From an uncultured Gammaproteobacteria bacterium (GTDB lineage Bacteria > Pseudomonadota > Gammaproteobacteria > Pseudomonadales > UBA5518), in assembly GCA_903921135.1 (NCBI GenBank), contig CAIXOY010000245.1:1-43950 (forward strand): a stretch of 43,950 bases of DNA, written 5' to 3'. Shown piece by piece: positions 1,885-43,950 of the stretch. Below the pieces are notes generated by a model. It had not been told where the DNA came from. It ran no database searches and saw nothing but the letters and a program-made list of their open reading frames with translations. The position numbers and the translations under genes are program-made. The first letter of the stretch is position 1; each line of letters opens with the position of its first letter.

Positions 1885-2151
1885 TCAGATGTCGGAGGGA
1901 AACGACACCGAGAGGTCTTCGGAGATTTTCTCGGACGGGTTGAAGCGCTCATTGGCCTTGCGGGTGGCGGCGGCTTCGTCCGATGCGCTGCTGCCGTCCT
2001 TGTCGCCCCCGTCGGCTTTTTTTCCTGGAGCGCTTGACGCTTTTGCAGGAGACGCTGTTGCGGTGACCGGCGCCGGTGCTGGCGAGGGTTCTGCCGCGCG
2101 CAGTACTGCCGACATCGAGAGCATCAGCGCGACCCAGTGCAACCGCCTCAC
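1885..2151 (-). CDS. Small secreted or anchored Ala/Pro/Ser-rich protein (88 aa), no recognisable family
   Basis: GTG start at 2151 overlaps the TGA of the upstream gene (GTGA). Hydrophobic N-terminus WVALMLSMSAVLRA-AE looks like a signal peptide. The rest is low complexity, so coding status is less certain. Confidence 0.5.
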   Translation of the reverse strand: MRRLHWVALMLSMSAVLRAAEPSPAPAPVTATASPAKASSAPGKKADGGDKDGSSASDEAAATRKANERFNPSEKISEDLSVSFPSDI

Positions 2152-4235
2152 TTGAGATACCTCGCAATCCGGAATCCCACGTCAGCGCGGGCCTCCGAGC
2201 CGTAGTCCCGGAAGGCGAGCCGCAGTTCCGTGAGGCCGCCGTGGCGCCAGCTCGCACCGCGTATCACGTGGTACTCGCCGATGTCCGCGCCGAAGGGGTC
2301 GGTCTCGACGCCTGCGCCGGGCGGAGCCGCGTCGTAGATGTCGTGGACCCATTCTGCCGCATTGCCGCCGAGGTCGAACAGGCCGAGCCGGTTTGGCGCG
2401 AAGCTGCGCACGGGAGCGGATACGGGGAAGCCGTCGTCGTAGCCGGCAATGATCTCGCCGAGGATGGTCTCGCCGCTCTTGTCGGCGTAGTTGCCTGCCT
2501 TGGGCCCAGGCGGAAGTGCAGCGCCCCACGGGAAGCGCAGCAGGTTGCCGTCCGTAGTGAGCGTGGCGGCCCACGCCCATTCCGCCTCGGTGGGCAGGCG
2601 GTAGCCGGTGGCGGTTTGGTCGATGCCTGTGATGGCCTTGCCGGAGACACGGTAGAAGGGCTTCAGCTTCTCCCGCTCGCTCAGCCAGTTGCAGTAGAGC
2701 GCCGCATCCGTCCAGCCCAGGTTCGTGGCGGGCTGCGTGTCACCGTTCAGGCTTTTGCCCTTGAAGTTGCCCGAGGAATGCGCGGGACGGAACTGCCGGA
2801 ACTCCGCGTTGCTCACCTCCGTCACGCTGAGGTAGTAGGGCCGCGTGAGGCGTATTTCGCGCATGGCCTCGTTGGCGCGTCTGCCCGATTCGCGTCGCGA
2901 GGAGCCCATGCGGAAACTCCCCGGGCGCATCAGCGCGAGCTCCTGCCCGGCGGCCGTGCGCAGTTGCGTGCGCGTGGCGGCTTCTTCTTTTTGTGCGAGC
3001 GTCTTCAGCCTGAGGTTGAAGGCTTGCGGAAAGCCGGGGCGCGGCGTGACGCGCAGCGTCTCGTCCGCGTAGCCCTTGCGCCGCACGGTGAGCACCTGCT
3101 GCGCGGCGGGCAGGGAGAGGGTGGCGGTTCCTGTTGCAAGCTGGCGCTCGCCAGCGAAAATCCCCGCGTCTGCAGGCGACACGCTGAGCCGGATCTCCCC
3201 CGCGAGGGCGCGCAGCGAGAGCTTGATCTCCTGCTCGCCTGCCGTTGCGCTGAAGCGGCGCAGTGCTCGCTCGTGGCCTGCCTTGAAGGCGATCAGTTCG
3301 TGGGCTTTGCCCGATTCGAGCGCGATATCGAGGGGCGTTACGCCGCGGAACTGTCCGTCCAGCGTGATGCTGGCGCCGGCAGGCGTGCTCGAGATGCGCA
3401 ACTTCGCGTCGGCGCGCACCAGCGTCATGCGTGCGAGGCTGCGCTCTTCGCCGGCCTTTGCCTCGACGAACAGGGCCTCGTCGCGATGACCCGCAAGGCT
3501 CAGCTGCAATTGCCGCGGGCCTTGCATCAGTTCCAGCGTTACGGGCGTAGTGCCGATCGCTGCGCCATCCAGCGTGACCGTGGCGCCCGCGGGCTCGGTC
3601 TCGAGCCGGTAGCTTCCCCAGCCCGGCGCCAGTCGCAACTCCAGCGATTGCTGCTTGCCAAGGCCCTCCACCGTCAGGTCCTGCTCGAGCGGCAGGAAAC
3701 GGTCAGCCTCCACGCGCAGGCGGTGCAGCCCCGCAGGTATCTCGAGTTCACCTGCGTTGCTGTTGCCGATCGGGGTGCCGTCGACCAGTACACGCGCCTC
3801 CACCGGTTCCGTGCGCAGCGCGAGGAGTCCCGGCAGTTTCTCGAGCCGCAGCTGCAGCTCGTTGCTGCCGTTGTTGACGCTGAAGTCCTGCTCCAGCGAG
3901 TGGTAGCCGGGCGCGGTGGCGCGGACCTGATAGCTGCCCGTGCGCAGCAGCACGCTGCTGCCGAGCACGAGGTGCAGGCCGCCGTCGATATCGACGTGCG
4001 CCTCCGGAGGATCTGTTTGCACCCGCAGCGTTTGCGCGCTCAGCAGGAACCACGCGAAGAGCGCAATGGCGAGCAGCGCGGAGCCCACCATGATCTGGCG
4101 CTTGCCCGGGCGCCGTGCGGGCGTGGTGGCAGCGGCAGGATCCGGCGGGCTGTAGGCAAAGGGCGCGATGGGCGCATCGTGTGCGTCCTCGGCGGGTGAG
4201 CCGTTGCCGGTGGTCATCAGATTTTTTGCCCGCAT
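2148..4235 (-). CDS. TM-anchored periplasmic protein with several PEGA-like repeats and a C-terminal FGE-sulfatase (SUMF1/EgtB/PvdO) fold domain
   Basis: TM segment IMVGSALLAIALFAWFLLSA. Repeated beta-sandwich modules (V.VDG..iG.TP..l.l..G.H.l...), e.g. ARVLVDGTPIGNS...LEIPAGLHRLRVE and ATVTLDGAAIGTTPVTLELMQGPRQLQLS. C-terminal RPGSFRMGS...YYLSVTEVSNAEF...YRLPTEAEWAWAA...GNAAEWVHD...IRGASW motifs. An alternative ATG at 4217 gives an ATGA overlap with the upstream stop. Confidence 0.85.
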   Translation of the reverse strand: MRAKNLMTTGNGSPAEDAHDAPIAPFAYSPPDPAAATTPARRPGKRQIMVGSALLAIALFAWFLLSAQTLRVQTDPPEAHVDIDGGLHLVLGSSVLLRTGSYQVRATAPGYHSLEQDFSVNNGSNELQLRLEKLPGLLALRTEPVEARVLVDGTPIGNSNAGELEIPAGLHRLRVEADRFLPLEQDLTVEGLGKQQSLELRLAPGWGSYRLETEPAGATVTLDGAAIGTTPVTLELMQGPRQLQLSLAGHRDEALFVEAKAGEERSLARMTLVRADAKLRISSTPAGASITLDGQFRGVTPLDIALESGKAHELIAFKAGHERALRRFSATAGEQEIKLSLRALAGEIRLSVSPADAGIFAGERQLATGTATLSLPAAQQVLTVRRKGYADETLRVTPRPGFPQAFNLRLKTLAQKEEAATRTQLRTAAGQELALMRPGSFRMGSSRRESGRRANEAMREIRLTRPYYLSVTEVSNAEFRQFRPAHSSGNFKGKSLNGDTQPATNLGWTDAALYCNWLSEREKLKPFYRVSGKAITGIDQTATGYRLPTEAEWAWAATLTTDGNLLRFPWGAALPPGPKAGNYADKSGETILGEIIAGYDDGFPVSAPVRSFAPNRLGLFDLGGNAAEWVHDIYDAAPPGAGVETDPFGADIGEYHVIRGASWRHGGLTELRLAFRDYGSEARADVGFRIARYLK

Positions 4236-19721: not shown

Positions 19722-19808
19722 TGGTGCGGGTGGTCGGAATCGAACCGACACTCTGTCACCAGAACTGGATTTTGAGTCCAGCGCGTCTACCAGTTCCGCC
19801 ACACCCGC
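19722..19808 (-). tRNA. tRNA-Leu (anticodon CAA), 87 nt with long variable arm and encoded CCA
   Basis: The reverse complement reads GCGGGTGTGGCGGAACTGGTAGACGCGCTGGACTCAAAATCCAGTTCTGGTGACAGAGTGTCGGTTCGATTCCGACCACCCGCACCA. Acceptor stem GCGGGTG/CACCCGC, anticodon loop CTCAAAA, T-arm GTCGG-TTCGATT-CCGAC. Closely resembles E. coli leuX. Confidence 0.92.
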
Positions 19809-35093: not shown

Positions 35094-36189
35094 ATGGAAA
35101 CCAATCCGCTCCAGAACCAGCTGAACGATCTGCGGTCCCGCACCGCCGATCTCAGGGGGTATCTTTGACTACGCCACCAAGAAAGACCGCCTGAAGGAAG
35201 TCGAGCTCGAGCTGAGCGAACCCAGCGTCTGGGAAAAGCCCGAGCGCGCACAGGAACTCGGCCGCGAGCGAGCCGCCCTCGAACTGGTCGTGAACACCAT
35301 CGAGAATCTCGACAGCGGTCTCGCCGACGCGGGCGACCTGCTCGAACTGATCGAGATGGAAGACGACACGGCGGCCTTCGAGTCCTTGTGCAGCGACGTG
35401 AACGGCTTGCAGCGGCAGGTCGAGAACCTCGAGTTCCGGCGCATGTTCTCGGGCGAGCATGACGGCGCCCACGCATTTCTCGATGTCCAGGCGGGCTCCG
35501 GTGGCACCGAGGCGCAGGACTGGGGCGAGATGCTCCTGCGGATGTATCTGCGCTGGGGCGAGGCCCACGGATTCGATTGCGAACTGGTCGAGTGCAGCGC
35601 CGGCGAGGTCGCGGGCATCAAGAGCGCGACCATACATTTCCGGGGCGACAACGCTTTCGGCTGGCTGCGCACCGAGACCGGCGTGCATCGTCTGGTGCGC
35701 AAGAGCCCCTTCGACAGCGGCAACCGGCGCCATACGTCCTTCGCCTCGGTGTTCGTGTCTCCCGAACTGGACGACACCATCCAGATCGACATAAACCCCG
35801 CCGACCTGCGCGTCGACACCTACCGCGCGAGCGGCGCTGGCGGACAGCACGTGAACCGTACCGATTCGGCCATCCGCATCACGCACATGCCGAGTGGCAT
35901 CGTGGTGCAGTGCCAGTCGCAGCGCTCCCAGCACCAGAACCGCGATTTCGCGATGAAGCAGTTGCGCGCCAAGCTCTACGAGCAGGAGATGCAGAAGCGC
36001 AGCGCAGCGCTGCAGGCGCTGGAAGACAGCAAATCCGACATCGGCTGGGGCAGCCAGATCCGGTCCTACGTGCTCGACCAGTCGCGCATCAAGGACCTTC
36101 GCACCGGGGTCGAGACCAGCGACACGCAGCGTGTGCTGGACGGCGACCTCGACCGATTCATCGAGGCCTCGCTGAAGGCCGGCCTCTGA
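35094..36189 (+). CDS. prfB: Peptide chain release factor 2, made by programmed +1 frameshift: join(35094..35165,35167..36189)
   Basis: Frame 0 reads [24 protein letters not shown] then in-frame TGA at 35166. The +1 frame continues [23 protein letters not shown]...SPF...[16 protein letters not shown] (SPF and GGQ motifs). Confidence 0.95.
35154..35169 (+). promoter_or_regulatory. RF2 autoregulatory +1 frameshift site
   Basis: AGGGGG TAT CTT TGA C: an internal Shine-Dalgarno-like AGGGGG, slippery CTT, then TGA followed by C. This matches the canonical element. Confidence 0.9.
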
Positions 36190-36211: not shown

Positions 36212-37705
<1,494 letters not shown>

Positions 37706-37734
37706 GCATTCGCGCGGGAAGGGGAACAGGTTCC

Positions 37735-38244
37735 ATGCGCACCATGTCTCTCGTGCTTGTCCTCTGTCTTGCCTGCATGGGAGTCGCCGCGCAGTCGGCT
37801 GTGCCCGCCGCGCCGGCCAAGGCCCCTGCCGATGAGCCCCTGCCCGAGGACTTCGACTCCCTGCTCCGAACGGGCTGGTGGGCGCTTCGCGCAGGCGATG
37901 CGGAGCGCGCCATGCTCGCCTACGAGCGCGTACTGGCTCGCGCTGATGATGCGCGCATGCAGGTGCGGGCACTGATCGTGATCGCGATGGCACGACTTAC
38001 GCCTTCCTCTGCGGCACATGATGTCGATGCCGCGGCGCTCGCGATGGAGGAACTCGACCGCCGGGTGAAGCTCTACGGGCTGGAACAGGAGTTTTTCGGC
38101 GAGCTGGAGTTGCTGCGACTGGTGGCCGCACAGGATCGCGAGTTGAAAACCCTGCGCGGCAGCCGGCGTTCGCTGGAGCGCGAGATCCGGCAGCGCGACG
38201 AGGTGATCCGTCAGTTGCGCGCGCTCAGCGTGGAGCAGCAGTAG
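37735..38244 (+). CDS. Hypothetical secreted protein with C-terminal coiled coil (169 aa)
   Basis: Signal-like MSLVLVLCLACMGVAAQS. No family recognised. The 3' end overlaps the convergent kinase gene by 20 nt. Confidence 0.5.
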   Translation: MRTMSLVLVLCLACMGVAAQSAVPAAPAKAPADEPLPEDFDSLLRTGWWALRAGDAERAMLAYERVLARADDARMQVRALIVIAMARLTPSSAAHDVDAAALAMEELDRRVKLYGLEQEFFGELELLRLVAAQDRELKTLRGSRRSLEREIRQRDEVIRQLRALSVEQQ

Positions 38245-40540
38245 GGCCTTCGCGTCTTGCAGTGCGCGCGAGCACCTCGCCCGTGCTGCCCTCGGTGAAT
38301 ACCAGGCGGTCGAGTTGCGCTTCCAGCACGGCCCGTGCGTCGCTTTCCTGTGCGTTGCCTTCCATGACGTAGACGGGCGTTTGCCGCAGCGCGTCCGAGC
38401 GCCCCAGCCCCTCGGCAATCAGGTGCACATCCTCGCCGGGCAGCGCGAGCGAGAGCAGGATCATGTCCGGTGGGCTCTGCCGCGCGATGGCCAGTGCCTC
38501 GCCCGGTTGCTCGGTGCTGCTTACGTACCATCCCTGCCGTTCCAGCCCTTCGACCAGCTCCGCACGCGCCGGAGAGGCGCTCTCGATCAGCAGCACATGG
38601 CCGCTGCGGTCGGCGGGCGCGAGGCGCTGCAGGGCCTGGGCCAGACGCTGCCGGTTGACGGGTTTCTCCAGCACTTCCGCGGCACCCTGCTCGATACCTG
38701 CCACGCGCGCATCGAGCATGGACTGCAACACAACGGGGATATGTCGGGTCTCGGGGTTGTCTTTCAGCACCGAGAGCACGGTCCAGCCGTCCACCTCCGG
38801 CATGACCAGATCGAGCACGATCATGTCCGGTTGTTGTTCCTTCGCCATGCGCAGGCCCTCGTTGCCGGAGGCGGCTTCCAGCACGGTACAGCCCTCCTGC
38901 TCCAGTGCGCGCGCCGTGAGTGCGCGGGCATCCGCGTCGTCGTCGATCACGAGCACGCGTTGTACACCGACGCCTTCCTGCGCCTCGGCCGCGGATTGCG
39001 TCCCGGTAACAGTGGTCTCGGCGGCGATGGCATCCACCGGCAGTTCCACGAAGAAGCAACTCCCGAGCCCCGGTTCGCTCTCTACGCCGATACTGCCTCC
39101 GAGCAGGGTGCAGAACTCCCGGCACAGCGAGAGCCCCAGCCCTGTGCCGCCATACTTCTTGGTGGTGGAGGAGTCTGCCTGCACGAAGGGTTCGAACACG
39201 GCCTCACACTGTTCCGCCGTCATGCCGATGCCGGTATCCCGGACATCGAAGCGCAGCCACTGCGTTCCCTCGTGTCCGAAGATCTTCGCCTCCACCCGTA
39301 TGCTGCCGTTCTCGGTGAACTTGCAGGCATTGCTCAGCAGGTTGGCGAAGATCTGGCGGAAGCGGATCTCGTCGGTGTGGATCGGCACCTCCGGGAGCGC
39401 GGATTCCACGCTGATGCGGTTGCGGTTGCGCGCGGCGAGTGCGTGCAGCGTTTCCGCGAGTTCCCGCAGTACCGCCAGTGCGTCGAAGCGCTCGCGGTGC
39501 AGCGTCATCTTGCCGGTCTCGATCTTGGCGAGGTCGAGCACATTGTTGATCAGCGACAGCAGGTGCCGCCCCGCGGTCAGGATGCGTTGCATGTCGCCCG
39601 TGAGGCTTGTGGCCCGGAGTTCCGGTTCGTCCTCCGCCATCTCCACCAGCATCTCGCTGTAGCCGATGATCGCGTTCAGCGGCGTGCGCAGCTCATGGCT
39701 CATGTTGGCAAGGAAGCCGCTTTTCGCGGCGTTCGCACGGTCTGCCTGCTCACGCGCGGTGTTGACCTCGTGCACGGCGTCTCTCAGCCGCCCCGCCATG
39801 TCGTTGAAGGCCGCTGCGAGTTGCCCGAACTCGTCGTCGGCCAGCACGGGTATGCGGTACTCCAGATCGCCGCGGCCGATGCGTACGGTGCCGCGACGCA
39901 AACGGAACAGCGATTCGTTCGTGTGCCGCATCAGCAGGAAACCCAGCATCGCAGTGAGGGCGATCGAGGCAAGGAAAACGGCCGTCACGACGCGGCCCGT
40001 GATCCTGCCTGTCTGCTCCACCGCGCCGCTTTCCTCGCGCGAGACCTCGGTGACGGCGGTGTCAAAAGCCTCCAGTGCAAGCGCCGCTCCGGCGTGACGC
40101 TCCTTCAGTTGATCGGCCGACAGTGCTGGCTTGCGTCCGGAGCGCAATTCGTCCAGCAGGTGGTTCCAGTCCCCGAACAGCGCGTCGGTGGCGGCTTGCA
40201 GCGTGACGTGAGCGGGGCGCGACACATCGGTGGTGTTCCGGCTCATGCGGGTGACCAGGCTTCCCATTGCCGTGATCTCCGCCCGGGCCCGGTCCGCTTC
40301 GGCCTCCGATGCGCCCTGGCCCGCGGATTCGCGCAGCGTAAGCAGCACCAGCAGCTGCTTGTGCAGCGTATCCATGCGCTGCCGCAGTTCGCCGGCGTTG
40401 ACCTGCCCACGTACCGAATCGCTCACGGCATCCAGGGATTCGCGGATCGCATGGTTGCCTATCGCGAAGGTGACGACGTTCACCGCGAACAGCGCAAGCA
40501 CACCGAAGATCGATATCGTGAGGCGCCTTGCGAGCGTCAC
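38225..40540 (-). CDS. Hybrid sensor histidine kinase: 2 TM + helical periplasmic sensor, HAMP, HisKA, HATPase_c, receiver, degenerate second receiver
   Basis: H-box NMSHELRTPLNAIIGYSEML. N/G boxes FANLLSNACKF, DTGIGM, GGTGLGL. REC1 VLVIDDDADAR...DMIVLDLVMPEVDG...EKP. REC2-like VLLIESASPAR...DMILLSLALPGED. GTGA overlap with the upstream gene. Confidence 0.9.
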   Translation of the reverse strand: MTLARRLTISIFGVLALFAVNVVTFAIGNHAIRESLDAVSDSVRGQVNAGELRQRMDTLHKQLLVLLTLRESAGQGASEAEADRARAEITAMGSLVTRMSRNTTDVSRPAHVTLQAATDALFGDWNHLLDELRSGRKPALSADQLKERHAGAALALEAFDTAVTEVSREESGAVEQTGRITGRVVTAVFLASIALTAMLGFLLMRHTNESLFRLRRGTVRIGRGDLEYRIPVLADDEFGQLAAAFNDMAGRLRDAVHEVNTAREQADRANAAKSGFLANMSHELRTPLNAIIGYSEMLVEMAEDEPELRATSLTGDMQRILTAGRHLLSLINNVLDLAKIETGKMTLHRERFDALAVLRELAETLHALAARNRNRISVESALPEVPIHTDEIRFRQIFANLLSNACKFTENGSIRVEAKIFGHEGTQWLRFDVRDTGIGMTAEQCEAVFEPFVQADSSTTKKYGGTGLGLSLCREFCTLLGGSIGVESEPGLGSCFFVELPVDAIAAETTVTGTQSAAEAQEGVGVQRVLVIDDDADARALTARALEQEGCTVLEAASGNEGLRMAKEQQPDMIVLDLVMPEVDGWTVLSVLKDNPETRHIPVVLQSMLDARVAGIEQGAAEVLEKPVNRQRLAQALQRLAPADRSGHVLLIESASPARAELVEGLERQGWYVSSTEQPGEALAIARQSPPDMILLSLALPGEDVHLIAEGLGRSDALRQTPVYVMEGNAQESDARAVLEAQLDRLVFTEGSTGEVLARTARREGPTAAPR

Positions 40541-40911
40541 GCCGGTGCGCCTCCCGTGAGTGCGGCGATACGTTCGAGCAGGCGCGGGAAATCGAGGGGT
40601 TTGGTTTCGTAGTCGTCGCAGCCTGCTTCCAGCGCGCGGATACGATCGTCGGACATCGCGTGCGCGGTGAGCGCGATGATGCGGATGCCGGCGCCAGCGG
40701 GGGATGCACGGATTTCGCGCGCCGCGTGCCAGCCGTCCTTCAGGGGCAGGTTCATGTCCATCAGCACGAGATCGGGCCGCTCCGAGAGCGCCATGCTCAC
40801 CGCCTGCTCGCCGTCCTCGGCCAACAGCACCTCGAAACCGCGCCGCGCGAGCCGCCGCGAGAGCATGTCGCGGTTCATCTCGTTGTCTTCCACCAGCAGG
40901 ATGCGCGTCAT
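40537..40911 (-). CDS. Single-domain (CheY-like) response regulator (124 aa)
   Basis: ILLVEDNEMNRDML...DLVLMDMNLPLKDG...ALTAHAM...GCDDYETKP. ATGA overlap upstream and GTGA overlap downstream. Confidence 0.9.
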   Translation of the reverse strand: MTRILLVEDNEMNRDMLSRRLARRGFEVLLAEDGEQAVSMALSERPDLVLMDMNLPLKDGWHAAREIRASPAGAGIRIIALTAHAMSDDRIRALEAGCDDYETKPLDFPRLLERIAALTGGAPA

Positions 40912-42434
40912 GATGCTTTGGGTGCCGCGGCGTCTGTGTGCATGCCTGTGATCGTGAAGATGGTCACCTCGCCCGCCATGCCCTTGGGTTGCGCGGTGAA
41001 CTGCCGGCCGGTTTCCACCGCTTCGCCCACTTCCTCGATGGTGCTCGCGGCAGCGAGGATCTCGCCTGCGGCAGTGAAGGCCTCGATGCGCGCCGTCAGG
41101 TTCACCGTGTGGCCCACCACCCCGTACTTGCTGCGTCGCTCCGATCCGATGTTCCCTGCCACCACCTTGCCCGTGTTCAGCCCGATGCCGATGCCGATCT
41201 CGGGCAGGCCGAGCGCGCGGTTGCGGTCGTTGATGCCGGCTACAGCCTCCTGCATGTCCCGCGCGCAGGCGATGGCGCGCAGCGCATCGTCATCGCGGGC
41301 CACGGGCGCGCCGAATATCGCGAGGATCGCGTCCCCGATGAATTCGTCCACCGTGCCGTTATGGGCCATGATGATCGAGGACATGGCGCCCAGATAGTTG
41401 TTCAGCAACTGCACCACCTGCTCGGGTTCGTGGTTCTCGCAGATCCAGCTGAAGTTGCGGATGTCGGCCATCAGGATGGTGACCGTGCAAGCCGAGCCGC
41501 CAAGGCGCAGTCCCTGCGGGGATTCCAGCAGTGCATCGACGATCTCGTCCGAGAGGTAACGGCCGAAGGTGTTGCGGATGAAACGCTGGTTGCGCTCGAG
41601 TTCGCGGCGGTAGGCCTCTTCCCGGTCGTGCCAGCGCTTGCGCTCGAGCCCCGCGGCGAGCCGCGCCTGCAACAGCGTGGGGTTGAAGGGCTTGTTCAGG
41701 TAGTCCTCGGCGCCGGCCTCGATGCAGCGGATCACGCCCGAGGTCTCACTGATACCCGAGATGACGATGACGGGAACGGCCCTCAGTGCGGCGTCTGCCT
41801 TCAGGATGGCCAGCAGTTCGAGGCCGCTCATGCCCGGCATCACAAGGTCGAGGAAGACCAGGTCCACCTTTTCCCGGCGCAGGATGTCGAGGCCCTCGTC
41901 GCCGGAGGCGGCGGACAGCACGCGGTGCCCCTGCCGCGCGAGATGGCGGCCGAGCAACTCGCGGCTCTGCTCGCTGTCATCGATCACCAGCAGCGTGCCG
42001 GGCGCGGCCTGCGGTAATTGCCGTTGCGCGATCGTGCTCCCCGCCAGGGGCTCCCTGCCGCCCTCTAGAGCGGCGCGTGCGCTTTCGCGCAGTTCGGCCA
42101 GCGCGGTGACCAGCACCGGTGGCAACTGCTGACCCTCTTCCTCGAGGATGAGTTCGACGTAACCCGAGATCGAGCCCATGTGATTGCGCAGGTCGTGACC
42201 GAGCCGGGCCGGCTCGGCATCAGGGGCATGACGCGCGAGACAGTCCGCTGCGCGCGCGGCTGCGAGACTGCATTTCTCGAGGTCGGGCAGGATGGCCGTG
42301 GCGCGGAGGTCCTCGGCGAGCGCGATCGTGTCAGCGACCTGGCGCTCGATCGCCAGGATGGCGCCGGGATCGGTGGCGGCCTGGCCGGTCGGGTTGAGGG
42401 GCACGCCCGGGGTCCATGGGGGGAGGTTGGTCAT
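40908..42434 (-). CDS. Receiver-domain class III nucleotidyl cyclase with N-terminal H-box (HisKA-like, no ATPase) domain
   Basis: LGHDLRNHMGSISGYVELI (H80). REC LLVIDDSEQSR...DLVFLDLVMPGMSG...NKP. Cyclase VTILMADIRNFS, GTVDEFIGDAILAIFGAP, KYGVVGHTVNLTARIE. Confidence 0.9.
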   Translation of the reverse strand: MTNLPPWTPGVPLNPTGQAATDPGAILAIERQVADTIALAEDLRATAILPDLEKCSLAAARAADCLARHAPDAEPARLGHDLRNHMGSISGYVELILEEEGQQLPPVLVTALAELRESARAALEGGREPLAGSTIAQRQLPQAAPGTLLVIDDSEQSRELLGRHLARQGHRVLSAASGDEGLDILRREKVDLVFLDLVMPGMSGLELLAILKADAALRAVPVIVISGISETSGVIRCIEAGAEDYLNKPFNPTLLQARLAAGLERKRWHDREEAYRRELERNQRFIRNTFGRYLSDEIVDALLESPQGLRLGGSACTVTILMADIRNFSWICENHEPEQVVQLLNNYLGAMSSIIMAHNGTVDEFIGDAILAIFGAPVARDDDALRAIACARDMQEAVAGINDRNRALGLPEIGIGIGLNTGKVVAGNIGSERRSKYGVVGHTVNLTARIEAFTAAGEILAAASTIEEVGEAVETGRQFTAQPKGMAGEVTIFTITGMHTDAAAPKAS

Positions 42435-42508
42435 TTATACCCGCAACGGCCCCGTGCGGGAACCCGCGACACCGGGGCTGACGCGTATGCAGGGAGCGGC
42501 CGAAGCTT

Positions 42509-42526
42509 GTGATATAGTCCCGCCGC
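42509..42526 (+). promoter_or_regulatory. 18-bp element GTGATATAGTCCCGCCGC (copy 1), extended -10-like (TGnTATAGT), upstream of the crp-like gene
   Basis: Lies 50 nt upstream of ATG 42576. An identical copy lies at 43276-43293. Confidence 0.4.
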
Positions 42527-42575
42527 ATCGCAACCCGACTCCTTGAGCGGCCAGCCGCATGGAGGACAAATACGC

Positions 42576-43226
42576 ATGTCGATGCTGTCCAAGGTAGAAA
42601 TCTTCGCAGGCCTGGGCGCTGACGAACTCTCCGAACTCGAGGGTTCCTGCGTCGCGCGCAATTACCCCCGCAACACCGTCGTGATCAACGAGAACGACTT
42701 CGCGGACTCGCTTTACGTCATCGAGAGCGGCAGGGTGAAGGTGTATTGCAGCGACAAGAACGGCAAGGAATACATCATGAACACCCTCGGGCCGGGGGAT
42801 TATTTCGGCGAGCTCGCACTGCTCGACGACGACCGCCGCTCGGCCTCGGTGCGCACCCTCGAGAAGTGTTCCTTCACGATCATCTTCAAGGACGAGTTCA
42901 ATGGCGTGATGTCGCGCCACCCGAACATGGCCCAGACCCTGATCCGCAATCTGACGCGCCGGGTGCGCAAGCTCACCGAGAACGTCAAGAGTCTTGCCCT
43001 GCAGGATGTCTACGGCCGCGTGACCAAGGTGCTGATGAGCCTCGCAGAACCCCGCGGAGAGAAGCTCTACATCGAGGAGCGTCTTACCCAGCAGGATATC
43101 GCCGACCGCGTGGGTGCCTCGCGCGAGATGGTTGCCCGCATCCTGAAGGACCTCGCCATCGGCGACTACATTGCCTTCGAGGGAAAGAACATCATCATCA
43201 ACGGCAAGCTGCCCACCAGCTACTGA
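42576..43226 (+). CDS. Crp/Fnr-family cyclic-nucleotide-binding transcriptional regulator (216 aa)
   Basis: cNMP-binding GDYFGELALLDDDRRSASVRT. C-terminal HTH LTQQDIADRVGASREMVARILKDL. GGAGG lies 10 nt upstream of ATG 42576. Confidence 0.9.
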   Translation: MSMLSKVEIFAGLGADELSELEGSCVARNYPRNTVVINENDFADSLYVIESGRVKVYCSDKNGKEYIMNTLGPGDYFGELALLDDDRRSASVRTLEKCSFTIIFKDEFNGVMSRHPNMAQTLIRNLTRRVRKLTENVKSLALQDVYGRVTKVLMSLAEPRGEKLYIEERLTQQDIADRVGASREMVARILKDLAIGDYIAFEGKNIIINGKLPTSY

Positions 43227-43275
43227 GTCGCGCCACTTTTCACGGCGCGGCGCCTGCCGGAAGGGCGAAGGCGTG

Positions 43276-43293
43276 GTGATATAGTCCCGCCGC
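43276..43293 (+). promoter_or_regulatory. 18-bp element GTGATATAGTCCCGCCGC (copy 2)
   Basis: Exact duplicate of 42509-42526. Lies 45 nt upstream of a 47-codon ORF. Confidence 0.35.
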
Positions 43294-43337
43294 GCCGGCA
43301 TCCCGCCCGCGCGTTCCCGGTGGTTCCAGCAGTACCC

Positions 43338-43481
43338 ATGCCTTCCCGAAAGATGGTGTCTTTCCGGCTTCCCGGCGCGCTCCGTGGTGAGCCCTTCAGC
43401 CCGGCCGAGCGTTTGATGCTGGGGGTATCCGCGCTGGCGCTGGCCGGAGCACTTGTGGCCTTGCTCCGCGTCTTCGCCTGA
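43338..43481 (+). CDS. Speculative small ORF (47 aa) with C-terminal hydrophobic helix
   Basis: MPSRKMVSFRLPGALRGEPFSPAERLMLGVSALALAGALVALLRVFA-stop, read by hand (below the track cutoff). No clear Shine-Dalgarno sequence. Supported only by the duplicated promoter-like element. Confidence 0.2.
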   Translation: MPSRKMVSFRLPGALRGEPFSPAERLMLGVSALALAGALVALLRVFA

Positions 43482-43485
43482 GCCC

Positions 43486-43950
43486 TCAGTCGGAGCTTCC
43501 GAAGATCTCGATCAGGTCTTCGACCAGCTTGTCGAGTTCCATCGACATCAACACGAAATCCCCGTCCAGCCGGGCCAGTTCCGCAGCATCGTCCTCGCCT
43601 TCGTAGCCCGCGTCGCGCTCGCGCACGTCGAGATATTTGATGGCGCTTGCGGACAGGTCCTCGGCCAGCACGAACTGCAGTCGGTCGCTCCACTGCAAAC
43701 CGTGGCTCGCGACGGTCTTGCCCGCTTCGAGGTGGTTGCGCACCTCCGCGGTGGCAAGCTCCTGCGCTCGCGCGCGGATCACATTGGCCTGATGCAGCGG
43801 GTCGCGCAGGTCGCAGTGCTGGCCGAGCGTGAAACGTGGAGGCAGACGCGTCCCCGCCAGCCAGTCGGTCATTTTCTCGACAGGGCTGCGTGCAGGCACC
43901 AGCGGTTTCACGGCGAGCGCGCCCAGCGTTTCGCGCAGCAGGTTCAGCAG
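43486..43950 (-). CDS. C-terminal part of an unidentified protein with acidic tail; frame open to the right edge
   Basis: The track ORF 43486..43911 continues upstream in frame (LLNLLRETLGALAV-KPLVPARS...) to position 43950. No family recognised by eye. Confidence 0.5.
   Translation of the reverse strand: MLNLLRETLGALAVKPLVPARSPVEKMTDWLAGTRLPPRFTLGQHCDLRDPLHQANVIRARAQELATAEVRNHLEAGKTVASHGLQWSDRLQFVLAEDLSASAIKYLDVRERDAGYEGEDDAAELARLDGDFVLMSMELDKLVEDLIEIFGSSD

Follow-up and report, generated by a model that had tools for sequence, protein, structure and literature searches.

The window, that is, the whole stretch of 43,950 nucleotides analyzed here, carries on its minus strand a gene (40908..42434) whose open reading frame translates into a class III nucleotide cyclase of 508 aa. 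The gammaproteobacterial lineage given in the initial annotation of this DNA was borne out. The locus is surrounded by the housekeeping genes prfB, lysS, rdgC, thrC and hom, which are found in the same order in relatives. Downstream from the cyclase gene, on the same strand, lie genes for a stand-alone receiver and a hybrid sensor histidine kinase. On the other side, a gene encoding a Crp-like regulator is oriented divergently.

Domain organization of the cyclase protein

Pfam searches and an AF2 model (mean pLDDT 85.9) gave the domain order of the cyclase protein as HisKA-like N-terminal domain, receiver, linker and class III cyclase. The protein is cytoplasmic, shares an operon with the kinase, and its regulatory part consists of the receiver and the HisKA-like domain. 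Pfam matches were obtained for Response_reg (PF00072, E=2e-27, 95.8 bits) and for Guanylate_cyc (PF00211, E=4e-24), the latter over residues 317-470, scoring 85.7 bits (cut-off 21.9).

The N-terminal domain (residues 23-124; 42063..42368, minus strand) is a four-helix domain with an H-box-like motif, HDLRN, in which His80 is encoded by CAC at 42197-42195. His80 and Asn84 of this motif are invariant across the cyclase family. The HisKA profile matches the protein weakly, below threshold (17.7 bits, E=0.004, cut-off 26.9), and matches 59 of 74 family members at E<=0.01, with a best value of 4e-7. Pfam detected no ATPase domain alongside the HisKA-like domain in the cyclase protein. Four confident helices were obtained for this domain in the full-length AF2 model, and the domain modelled alone reached a pLDDT of 84; a PDB fold search with the model, comparing Hpt-like with DHp-like folds, returned generic four-helix bundles only (E>0.09).

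The receiver domain assigned to PF00072 covers residues 147-261 (41652..41996, minus strand), and its phospho-acceptor is Asp196 (codon 41849-41847). Residues D152, D153, D196, S226 and K248 correspond to D12, D13, D57, T87 and K109 of CheY, and this DDDSK set is invariant in the cyclase family. A long helix and a conserved linker (residues 262-312; 41499..41651, minus strand), with the motif FIRNTFGRYLSDEIVDALLE, join the receiver to the cyclase. The model places helices of this region at residues 252-290 and 296-304. From residue 286 onward, the linker aligns with the Cya2 linker kept in the chimera 6FHT, and it is nearly invariant across the family. The class III catalytic domain follows at residues 313-498 (40941..41498, minus strand), supported by a gap-free alignment to Cya2 (2W01) and by Foldseek. 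The span 40908-41492 singled out in the initial annotation thus represents residues 315-508, i.e., the catalytic domain.

Operon and intergenic region

The gene of the stand-alone receiver (124 aa; 40537..40911, minus strand) has its start overlapping the cyclase stop by four bases (ATGA), and its E-D-D-T-K residues are intact. The start of the hybrid sensor histidine kinase gene (771 aa; 38225..40540, minus strand), recognized by Pfam, overlaps in turn the stop of the receiver gene by four bases (GTGA). Translation of the cyclase gene is thus coupled to that of the receiver gene and the kinase gene. The kinase comprises two transmembrane segments, HAMP, HisKA and HATPase_c domains and two receivers; REC1 has a functional set of residues (D-D-D-K), and REC2 is degenerate (E-S-S-E-T). 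Across 80 genomic loci of the cyclase, the stand-alone receiver gene was found downstream from the cyclase gene in 68 and the hybrid kinase gene was present in 66. The cyclase-REC-kinase gene order is kept in 66-68 of the 80 loci, bacteria outside the gammaproteobacteria included.

The cyclase operon is separated from the divergent Crp-like gene by the intergenic region 42435..42575, which we inspected by reading the sequence. No sigma-70-like promoter passed our scan of positions 37600-43950, this region included, and terminator-like sites were not more frequent in 37600-43950 than in shuffled sequences. Visual inspection showed one sequence similar to an extended -10 element for the Crp-like gene, TGATATAGT at about 42510-42518. 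A TGTGA-N6-TCACA site matching at 9/10 positions or better was absent from the intergenic region between cyclase and Crp-like genes, both in the window and in 57 related loci. The best matches reached just 6-8/10, giving no sign of autoregulation through a canonical CAP site.

Active site and purine-specificity residues

The initial annotation had proposed Glu364 and Gly438 as the two residues that select the purine. Both assignments are correct: Glu364 is encoded by GAA at 41345-41343, within HNGTVDEFIGDAI, and Gly438 by GGG at 41123-41121, within SKYGVVGHTVNLTARIE. The motifs reported around them are also present in the translation (ILMADIRNFS from residue 320, FIGDAI from 365 and TVNLTAR from 443). 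A phmmer search aligned residues 310-498 with Cya2 of Synechocystis PCC 6803 (2W01) over 189 residues without a gap, at 48% identity (E=1e-56). Using the native numbering of Cya2 (PMC6005667), residues D448, R450, E488, D492, G562, N569, R573 and K608 correspond to D324, R326, E364, D368, G438, N445, R449 and K484 of the window cyclase, and all eight are identical. Glu364 and Gly438 therefore fall on Glu488 and Gly562, the purine-selecting positions of Cya2, and the tripeptide K436-Y437-G438 falls on K560-Y561-G562. The metal-binding Asp residues and the Asn/Arg pair are intact, as had been claimed, and so is the phosphate-binding Lys; these residues and Arg326 are likewise conserved in relatives. 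The active site of a class III cyclase is thus complete in the sequence, which predicts an active enzyme.

Aligning the protein with reference adenylate cyclases as well as with Cya2 gave the same two specificity positions. In the phmmer search, CyaB (3R5G) and CyaC (1WC0) carry Lys and Thr at these columns, and the engineered E-to-K chimera of Cya2 (6FHT) carries Lys at the first. Cya2 scored 195 bits, CyaB 105 and CyaC 93. The predicted structure gave the same picture: Foldseek returned 2W01 as the best structural match (TM 0.90, rmsd about 2 A, E=3e-22), with 47-48% identity for Cya2 versus 31-32% for CyaC and CyaB. The Glu-Gly pair and the GTP preference attributed to Cya2 are confirmed by the literature, in which Cya2 is experimentally GTP-specific through this pair (PMC6005667). 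The window cyclase joins this already known Cya2-type group, and from its two specificity residues and this homology we infer a preference for GTP.

Conservation of the cyclase family

All 80 genomic relatives have Glu at the first specificity position, together with Gly (74) or Ala (6) at the second. Glu with Gly or Ala is also found in the 120 best database homologues, so the pair has not arisen here by chance. In an exhaustive search of 1.84 billion proteins, the 152 closest catalytic domains included 144 with Glu accompanied by Gly, Ala, Ser or Thr and only one with Lys. The catalytic domain hence belongs to a large clade whose members nearly all combine Glu with a small residue. Since Cya2-like Glu/Gly domains are abundant in sequence databases, the catalytic domain itself is not rare. 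Among the domains associated with the 66 nearest catalytic domains, REC was the commonest partner (34) and CHASE2 was rare (2).

The Crp-like regulator and its pairing with the cyclase

The divergent gene (42576..43226, plus strand) encodes a protein of 216 aa with a cNMP-binding domain and a Crp-type helix-turn-helix, and this 216-aa gene call is common to relatives. Pfam identified cNMP_binding (PF00027, E=1e-26, 92.8 bits) and HTH_Crp_2 (PF13545, E=2e-10, 40.8 bits), confirming the Crp-like neighbor of the initial annotation as a cNMP-binding regulator of the Crp family. Residues G78, E79, R88, S89, R183, E184 and R188 correspond to G71, E72, R82, S83, R180, E181 and R185 of CAP; the ribose-phosphate contacts of CAP are thus retained, as are its residues for reading DNA. 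At the positions of Thr127-Ser128 of E. coli CRP, the alignment places Leu133-Thr134. These Thr-Ser adenine contacts are absent. The protein scored 134 bits against the CRP equivalog model NF008732, below its cut-off of 266 bits. A T127L substitution is reported to make E. coli CRP responsive to cGMP. No sequence signature of cGMP selectivity is common to CgrA, Clr and XC_0249, and Leu-Thr is no established cGMP signature, because it differs from the residues of CgrA (TS), of Clr (TT) and of the cGMP domain of XC_0249 (NE).

The pairing of the two genes proved to be conserved across genomes. Of the 80 genomic cyclase loci, 57 have the Crp-like gene next to the cyclase gene in divergent orientation, with cyclase identities down to about 45%, and the Crp-like product always shows the signature GERS/LT/RER in these loci. 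A search from the Crp side found the cyclase adjacent in 34 of 35 close relatives (those with enough flanking DNA). Among 138 related Crp-like sequences, the Gly-Glu and Arg-Ser ribose-phosphate contacts to the cyclic nucleotide are invariant and the Leu-Thr motif is invariant in all but a few. The adjacency is not obligatory, since the three closest GTDB relatives (L001, L002 and L007) have no adjacent Crp-like gene and one locus (L084) has a close Crp-like gene without a cyclase. In eleven more distant Crp-like loci, another class III cyclase, of the CHASE2 type, occupies the same divergent position, indicating that the pairing of this Crp-like clade with a cyclase recurs.

Proposed circuit and alternative explanations

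We favor, with a probability of about 0.65, a reading of these sequences in which the locus encodes a phosphorelay-controlled, GTP-preferring cyclase of the Cya2 type, whose cGMP would be read by the Crp-like factor. The membrane kinase would sense a periplasmic signal and start a phosphorelay. The operon encodes no separate Hpt protein, so the relay may run through His80 in the N-terminal domain of the cyclase itself, and it would end on Asp196. The long helix, together with the conserved linker, would then carry the phosphorylation signal to the catalytic domain, a dimer that would convert GTP to 3',5'-cGMP. Once bound to cGMP, the divergently encoded Crp-like protein would in turn act on TGTGA-type sites elsewhere in the genome to alter transcription.

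It is conceivable, if unlikely, that the cyclase makes cGMP and that the Crp-like neighbor is not its receptor. The two genes would then lie together through a gene order inherited near lysS/rdgC, and the regulator would bind another ligand, or none in the manner of a CRP* protein. More distant members of the Crp-like clade (L121-L123) are indeed located directly beside lysS without a cyclase, no cyclase was seen within about 4 kb at eleven of these more distant loci, and the exceptions L001, L002, L007 and L084 show that the two genes are separable. A pairing by mere inheritance fits poorly with the divergent arrangement kept in 57 loci down to about 45% cyclase identity and in 34 of 35 relatives seen from the Crp side, and with the eleven distant loci in which a CHASE2-type cyclase is the partner. 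As for the ligand, E. coli CRP becomes a ligand-independent CRP* protein when its TS motif receives hydrophobic substitutions (PMC11253593, PMC2743635), and the shared intergenic region has no CRP site. The Gly-Glu and Arg-Ser contacts, invariant in the 138 sequences, argue instead for a bound cyclic nucleotide.

We consider it improbable that the enzyme is an adenylate cyclase, or a cyclase without strong purine preference, and that its neighbor is an ordinary cAMP receptor. Public databases label the two proteins "class 3 adenylate cyclase" and "cyclic AMP-dependent transcriptional regulator", which are generic names. Two-residue rules are imperfect predictors for bacterial class III cyclases. 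However, the Lys that would contact adenine N1 is replaced by Glu in each of the 80 genomic relatives, the structurally characterized adenylate cyclases reach about half the score of Cya2, and the nearest characterized enzyme is the GTP-specific Cya2 itself, for which a Glu-to-Lys change was needed to obtain an adenylate cyclase (6FHT). On the receptor side, the Crp-like protein retains a generic cassette for binding the cNMP phosphate and CAP-like residues for reading DNA, which would suit cAMP as well, but it lacks Thr127, the contact of CAP with adenine N6, and its score of 134 bits falls below the 266-bit cut-off for CRP.

A Pycsar-like anti-phage system, in which a cCMP or cUMP cyclase adjoins a cNMP-binding effector, is very improbable and was rejected, since the PADLOC matches of PycC models to the catalytic domain (best 80.7 bits, against 195 bits for Cya2) and of effector models to the neighbor's cNMP-binding domain (43 bits) reflect shared folds only, the neighbor's output is a DNA-binding helix-turn-helix and not a TIR or membrane effector, the surroundings are syntenic housekeeping genes with no defense island, and the cyclase would be under phosphorelay control.

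Under the favored reading, the Cya2-type cyclase of the locus has an obvious input, the phosphorelay, and a candidate output, the Crp-like factor. Dozens of genomes in an ecologically abundant family of coastal bacteria keep the arrangement, and cultured strains carry the locus, so that it is directly testable. Cultured carriers include Congregibacter variabilis IMCC43200, Pseudohalioglobus lutimaris HF004, Chromatocurvus halotolerans DSM 23344 and Haliea sp. E17, and NZ_CP136864.1 is one of the complete genomes with the locus. More tentatively, and here we are rather doubtful, the locus could belong to a clade-wide cGMP circuit of marine Halieaceae (OM60/NOR5) and related gammaproteobacteria. 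Such a circuit would be driven by a phosphorelay and read by a previously unrecognized class of CRP-family receptors with Leu-Thr in place of Thr-Ser. The same receptor clade is also paired with CHASE2 cyclases, which carry an undescribed Asp/Arg specificity pair. Our literature search found no link between Halieaceae, Congregibacter or OM60 and cGMP or guanylate cyclase. If true, a circuit of this kind would widen the repertoire of bacterial signaling by cyclic nucleotides other than cAMP, and many "cAMP" annotations would be wrong. As 144 of the 152 domains nearest to the catalytic domain carry a guanylate-type pair, a large group of proteins probably bears the labels "adenylate cyclase" and "cAMP-dependent regulator" in error. 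Should the GTP prediction fail, the enzyme would be a counter-example to the specificity-residue rule at 48% identity to Cya2.

Comparison with known systems

Beyond Cya2, the Gcy/CgrA system and XC_0250/XC_0249, our search of the literature found no further bacterial cGMP systems. Cya2 is the best match to the window cyclase by both sequence and structure. The two enzymes share the Glu-Gly pair, the KYG tripeptide, the two metal-binding Asp residues, the Asn/Arg pair, the phosphate-binding Lys, Arg326 (Arg450 in Cya2) and the upstream linker. They differ in their sensory parts: Cya2 sits in the membrane and senses through an extracellular CHASE2 domain, which is absent from the window cyclase. 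In addition, Cya2 has no known cGMP receptor (PMC10187061), nor does its type of enzyme, whereas the window locus encodes a candidate receptor next door. The class IIIb enzymes CyaB of Pseudomonas aeruginosa and CyaC of Spirulina have the same fold, dimeric active-site layout and catalytic Asp, Asn and Arg residues; unlike the window cyclase, they carry the Lys/Thr pair, and they are 31-32% identical to it with about half the score of Cya2.

The only experimentally described cGMP pathway in gammaproteobacteria is XC_0250/XC_0249 of Xanthomonas campestris (PMC3770947). As in the window, a class III cyclase gene adjoins a gene for an effector with a cNMP domain. Nevertheless, the catalytic residues of XC_0250 are non-canonical, its partner domain contains TPRs (PMC3770947), and XC_0249 is a cGMP-binding diguanylate cyclase, with c-di-GMP synthesis rather than DNA binding as its output. 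XC_0249 reads cGMP through an Asn-Glu pair of the C-helix, where the window Crp-like protein has Leu-Thr. The R. centenum and Xanthomonas cyclases form a divergent group with replaced transition-state Asn and Arg: XC_0250 carries Leu157 and Ala161, and Leu157 is also found in the R. centenum enzyme (PMC3770947). Compared by the residues given in that study, the window cyclase keeps Asn445 and Arg449 together with Glu/Gly, and the GcyA/XC_0250 type, which has Ala at the specificity position, does not.

Only two cGMP-activated CRP proteins, both alphaproteobacterial, were listed in a 2023 review (PMC10187061). Clr of Sinorhizobium meliloti (7PZA/7PZB) has Thr141 at the position of Thr134 of the window protein, which is that of CAP Ser128, and makes the same ribose-phosphate contacts. 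In Clr, this Thr forms a bond across the dimer to the N2 amine of cGMP (PMC10127613). [quoted passage not shown] It is also distant from the window Crp-like protein (E=1e-21), to which both M. tuberculosis CRP and E. coli CAP are better matches.

In the alphaproteobacterial module of Rhodospirillum centenum, which comprises GcyA, GcyB, GcyC and CgrA, guanylate cyclase genes adjoin the gene of a cGMP-responsive factor of the CRP family (PMC10187061). The initial annotation had drawn a parallel with this system. The parallel stands for the gene arrangement, which resembles that of gcyB-gcyC-cgrA (PMC10187061), and fails for the catalytic type, which is Cya2-like instead. A conserved adjacency of the cyclase with the CRP-family gene, a feature of this type of module, was found here as well (57 of 80 loci, and 34 of 35 from the Crp side). 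The R. centenum genes form a co-oriented operon with a perfect CAP site, whereas the cyclase and Crp-like genes of the window are divergent and have no such site. CgrA has a TS motif and RT, in contrast to LT and RS in the window protein. What the two systems would have in common is their logic, in which a cyclase supplies cGMP to a CRP-like factor that controls transcription, with the product and the receptor being predicted ones at the window locus.

Active-site residues and conservation of the cyclase

The cyclase is encoded by an intact ORF of 508 aa (40908-42434, - strand), in which Pfam detected a receiver domain (residues 149-259, E=2e-27), a class III cyclase domain (residues 317-470, E=4e-24) and a weak HisKA match (residues 78-120). 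For 40908-41492, a span covering the catalytic domain, the initial annotation had proposed a possible guanylate cyclase with a Glu/Gly pair at the substrate-specifying positions. Both codons were read as claimed in the translation: Glu364 (GAA, 41345-41343, - strand) lies inside HNGTVDEFIGDAI and Gly438 (GGG, 41123-41121, - strand) inside SKYGVVGHTVNLTARIE. The metal-binding and Asn/Arg motifs quoted with them are also present, beginning at residues 320, 365 and 443.

A phmmer search of all PDB sequences returned as its top two matches the domain of Cya2, the guanylate cyclase of Synechocystis PCC 6803 (2W01, E=1e-56), and a phytochrome-Cya2 chimera (6FHT). The alignment with 2W01 was gap-free over 189 residues (48% identity), and the native Cya2 numbering (PMC6005667) was transferred through it. 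All eight active-site residues that a review lists for Cya2 (D448, R450, E488, D492, G562, N569, R573 and K608; PMC6005667) are shared by the window protein (D324, R326, E364, D368, G438, N445, R449 and K484), as is the Lys-Tyr preceding the specificity Gly. According to that review, Cya2 strongly prefers GTP, and its Glu-Gly pair distinguishes it from the Lys-Asp/Thr of adenylate cyclases and the Glu-Cys/Ser of mammalian guanylate cyclases (PMC6005667). In the same phmmer search, Lys and Thr occupy the two specificity columns in the adenylate cyclases CyaB and CyaC; the engineered 6FHT has Lys. An AlphaFold2 model of the window protein (74 homologues, mean pLDDT 85.9) gave Cya2 as its best Foldseek match in the PDB (TM 0.90, rmsd about 2 Å, 47-48% identity); the adenylate cyclases retrieved were 31-32% identical. 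The gap-free Cya2 alignment, the adenylate cyclase columns and the Foldseek match therefore confirm Glu364 and Gly438 as the specificity positions, and the resemblance to Cya2 proposed in the initial annotation holds at both (E364 = E488, G438 = G562).

All 120 best homologues from a search of 5.8 billion protein clusters carry Glu together with Gly or Ala. In a scan covering one genome per species, Glu was present in 80/80 loci, with Gly as its partner in 74 and Ala in 6. When 1.84 billion cluster representatives were scanned exhaustively with HMMER, 7,977 proteins were retrieved at E<=1e-30; in the best 150 of these, 144 of 152 domains have Glu with Gly, Ala, Ser or Thr, and one has Lys. These counts place the window enzyme inside a large clade that is almost uniformly guanylate-type, a membership supporting the predicted preference for GTP, to which we assign a probability of about 75%. 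Cya2-like domains are numerous, and a catalytic domain of this type is common, not exceptional. Among the 66 nearest representatives, the receiver is the commonest partner domain (34), followed by GAF (14), and CHASE2, the Cya2 architecture, is rare (2). In the nearest species-level genome the cyclase is just 69% identical. Names in public records are “class 3 adenylate cyclase”, “response regulator” and “cyclic AMP-dependent transcriptional regulator”.

Domain organization and operon structure

The model comprises five parts: a four-helix N-terminal domain (residues 23-124), a disordered link, the receiver (147-261), helices (one long, 252-290, and one short, 296-304) and the cyclase fold. 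The phosphorylation residues of the receiver are complete (D152, D153, D196, S226 and K248). Ahead of the catalytic domain, the segment FIRNTFGRYLSDEIVDALLE is near-invariant across the family and aligns with the Cya2 linker kept in 6FHT; through it, the regulatory signal probably reaches the dimeric active site. The HisKA-like N-terminal domain (42063-42368, - strand), which Pfam HisKA matches in 59 of 74 family members, contains an H-box-like HDLRN whose His80 (codon 42197-42195, - strand) and Asn84 are invariant in the family. A fold search with this domain returned generic helical bundles only, and the cyclase protein contains no ATPase domain. The N-terminal domain could serve in phosphotransfer, as a phosphatase site or merely for dimerisation.

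The cyclase stop overlaps (ATGA) the start of a gene for a 124-aa stand-alone receiver (40537-40911, - strand), whose own stop overlaps (GTGA) the start of the gene for a 771-aa hybrid histidine kinase (38225-40540, - strand). The same three-gene order was counted in 66-68 of the 80 loci, some of them from deltaproteobacteria and other lineages outside the gammaproteobacteria. The kinase has two membrane segments enclosing about 150 residues without family match; HAMP, HisKA and HATPase_c come next, and then two receivers, the first functional (D-D-D-K) and the second degenerate (kinase residues about 649-771; 38225-38620, - strand). Since the latter reads E-S-S-E-T at CheY D12/D13/D57/T87/K109, it is a pseudo-receiver. 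To reach a terminal receiver, hybrid kinases usually depend on a His-containing intermediate, and the cyclase operon has no gene for an Hpt protein; for these reasons, His80 of the cyclase might provide the histidine transfer step from the hybrid kinase. Control of the cyclase by receiver phosphorylation is likely.

Running towards the kinase gene is a 169-aa ORF (37735-38244, + strand), and the two overlap by 20 bases at their 3' ends (38225-38244). The ORF has a hydrophobic, signal-peptide-like N-terminus, lacks Pfam matches and is kept at the same position in two related loci (L007 and L081).

Gene neighbourhood across genomes

The Crp-like gene (216 aa; 42576-43226, + strand; start common to relatives) is divergent from the cyclase. 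The two adjoin in this orientation in 57 of the 80 scanned loci, essentially all those of Halieaceae/Cellvibrionales type, and every Crp-like protein of these pairs is 65-74% identical to that of the window and carries the signature GERS/LT/RER. When metagenome contigs were searched from the Crp side, 35 close Crp-like relatives had sufficient DNA upstream, and a receiver-cyclase adjoined 34 of them. The cyclase operon stands without the Crp-like gene in the cyclase's three nearest relatives from GTDB (L001, L002 and L007), and locus L084 has a 92% identical Crp-like gene beside rdgC, without the cyclase. That a few lineages separate the two genes, or have no operon between lysS and rdgC, suggests an older neighbourhood of lysS, the Crp-like gene and rdgC that either gained the operon by insertion or lost it.

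A relative whose cyclase is 89% identical shares the gene order of the window (rdgC, Crp-like, cyclase, receiver, kinase, 169-aa ORF, lysS, prfB, recJ); the locus therefore belongs to the core chromosome. Housekeeping genes around it in the window are ffh, rimM, rplS, dsbC, hom, thrC, prfB and lysS, and the GC content of the window is 66%. In loci L121-L123, lysS directly adjoins the Crp-like gene. The prfB gene (35290-36189, + strand) has the classic programmed +1 frameshift site of release factor 2: its short upstream frame (35096-35169) starts at ATG 35096 and ends in CTT TGA C (35163-35169), preceded by AGGGGG, with the main ORF in the +1 frame. A tRNA-Leu (anticodon CAA; 19722-19808, - strand) is the single Rfam/ARAGORN match within the window. 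Unrelated to the cyclase locus, a 695-aa protein (2148-4235, - strand) carries three PEGA domains as well as one of formylglycine-generating-enzyme (sulfatase-modifying factor) type; its gene adjoins one of the MotA/ExbB family.

Members of the Leu-Thr Crp-like clade that are more distant, at 43-62% identity, lie divergently beside another cyclase, of CHASE2-membrane-class III architecture and about 745 aa. It lies on the - strand at L124:1957-4323, L127:2037-4265, L143:1790-4027, L151:2142-4409 and L160:2406-4673, with further examples in L125, L126, L128, L134, L140 and L161. These CHASE2 cyclases keep the metal-binding Asp, the Asn, Arg and Lys, and align Asp (S-D-[IV]-[IV]-G-D) and Arg (Y-E-Y-R-A-V-G-D) at the specificity columns. 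To our knowledge, no characterised cyclase has an Asp/Arg pair.

Putative ligand of the Crp-like protein

The Crp-like protein contains a cNMP-binding domain (E=1e-26) and a Crp-type helix-turn-helix (Pfam). It is 33% identical to E. coli CRP, keeps the ribose-phosphate contacts (G71, E72, R82, S83) and DNA contacts (R180, E181, R185) of the latter, and scores 134 bits against the NCBI CRP model, under the 266-bit cut-off. Leu133-Thr134 replace CRP Thr127-Ser128, which contact adenine N6 (PMC10187061). Known cGMP responders differ at this motif, with TS, and RT for RS, in CgrA of R. centenum (PMC10187061), TT in Clr of Sinorhizobium meliloti (PMC10127613) and NE in XC_0249 of Xanthomonas campestris (PMC3770947), so that the ligand cannot be read from the sequence. 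Loss of the Thr127 hydroxyl leaves one cAMP contact fewer, which fits a cGMP ligand without proving it. The Clr counterpart of Thr134, likewise a Thr, reaches across the dimer to bond the N2 amine of syn-cGMP (PMC10127613), an equivalence that is compatible with cGMP, again without proof.

Reduced dependence on ligand is a live alternative, because hydrophobic substitutions at this same motif make E. coli CRP ligand-independent (PMC2743635, PMC11253593); however, the phosphate-binding residues of the Crp-like proteins are invariant, which favours a bound nucleotide. We lean slightly towards the Crp-like protein being the cGMP receptor of the cyclase. No CAP-type site was found in the cyclase/Crp-like shared intergenic region of any locus examined. 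The entire scheme, in which a phosphorelay would control a guanylate cyclase that signals to a Crp-like cGMP receptor, appears reasonably probable.

Comparison with known cGMP systems

The guanylate cyclase interpretation of the initial annotation is supported as a prediction. The only gammaproteobacterial cGMP pathway described is that of the X. campestris guanylate cyclase XC_0250 and its effector XC_0249 (PMC3770947), and our literature search found no Halieaceae-cGMP connection. What makes the locus valuable is that its input, enzyme and putative receptor form a clean and conserved set, open to experiment, for cGMP signalling in bacteria of an abundant marine clade.

By its catalytic domain, the window enzyme is a member of the Cya2-type subgroup; as reported by the review, the authors of the Cya2 structure raised the possibility, from a sequence alignment, that Cya2 stands for a subgroup of bacterial guanylate cyclases (PMC6005667). 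The R. centenum and Xanthomonas cyclases, in which the Asn/Arg pair is replaced (PMC3770947), are of another type. The window enzyme keeps this pair. The analogy drawn with R. centenum stands for the module, a cyclase beside a CRP-family gene (PMC10187061) whose receptor role is here predicted. The two modules differ in catalytic lineage, in receptor motif, in the orientation of the genes and in input, and the circuit around the cyclase would represent a variant of the cyclase-plus-CRP theme.
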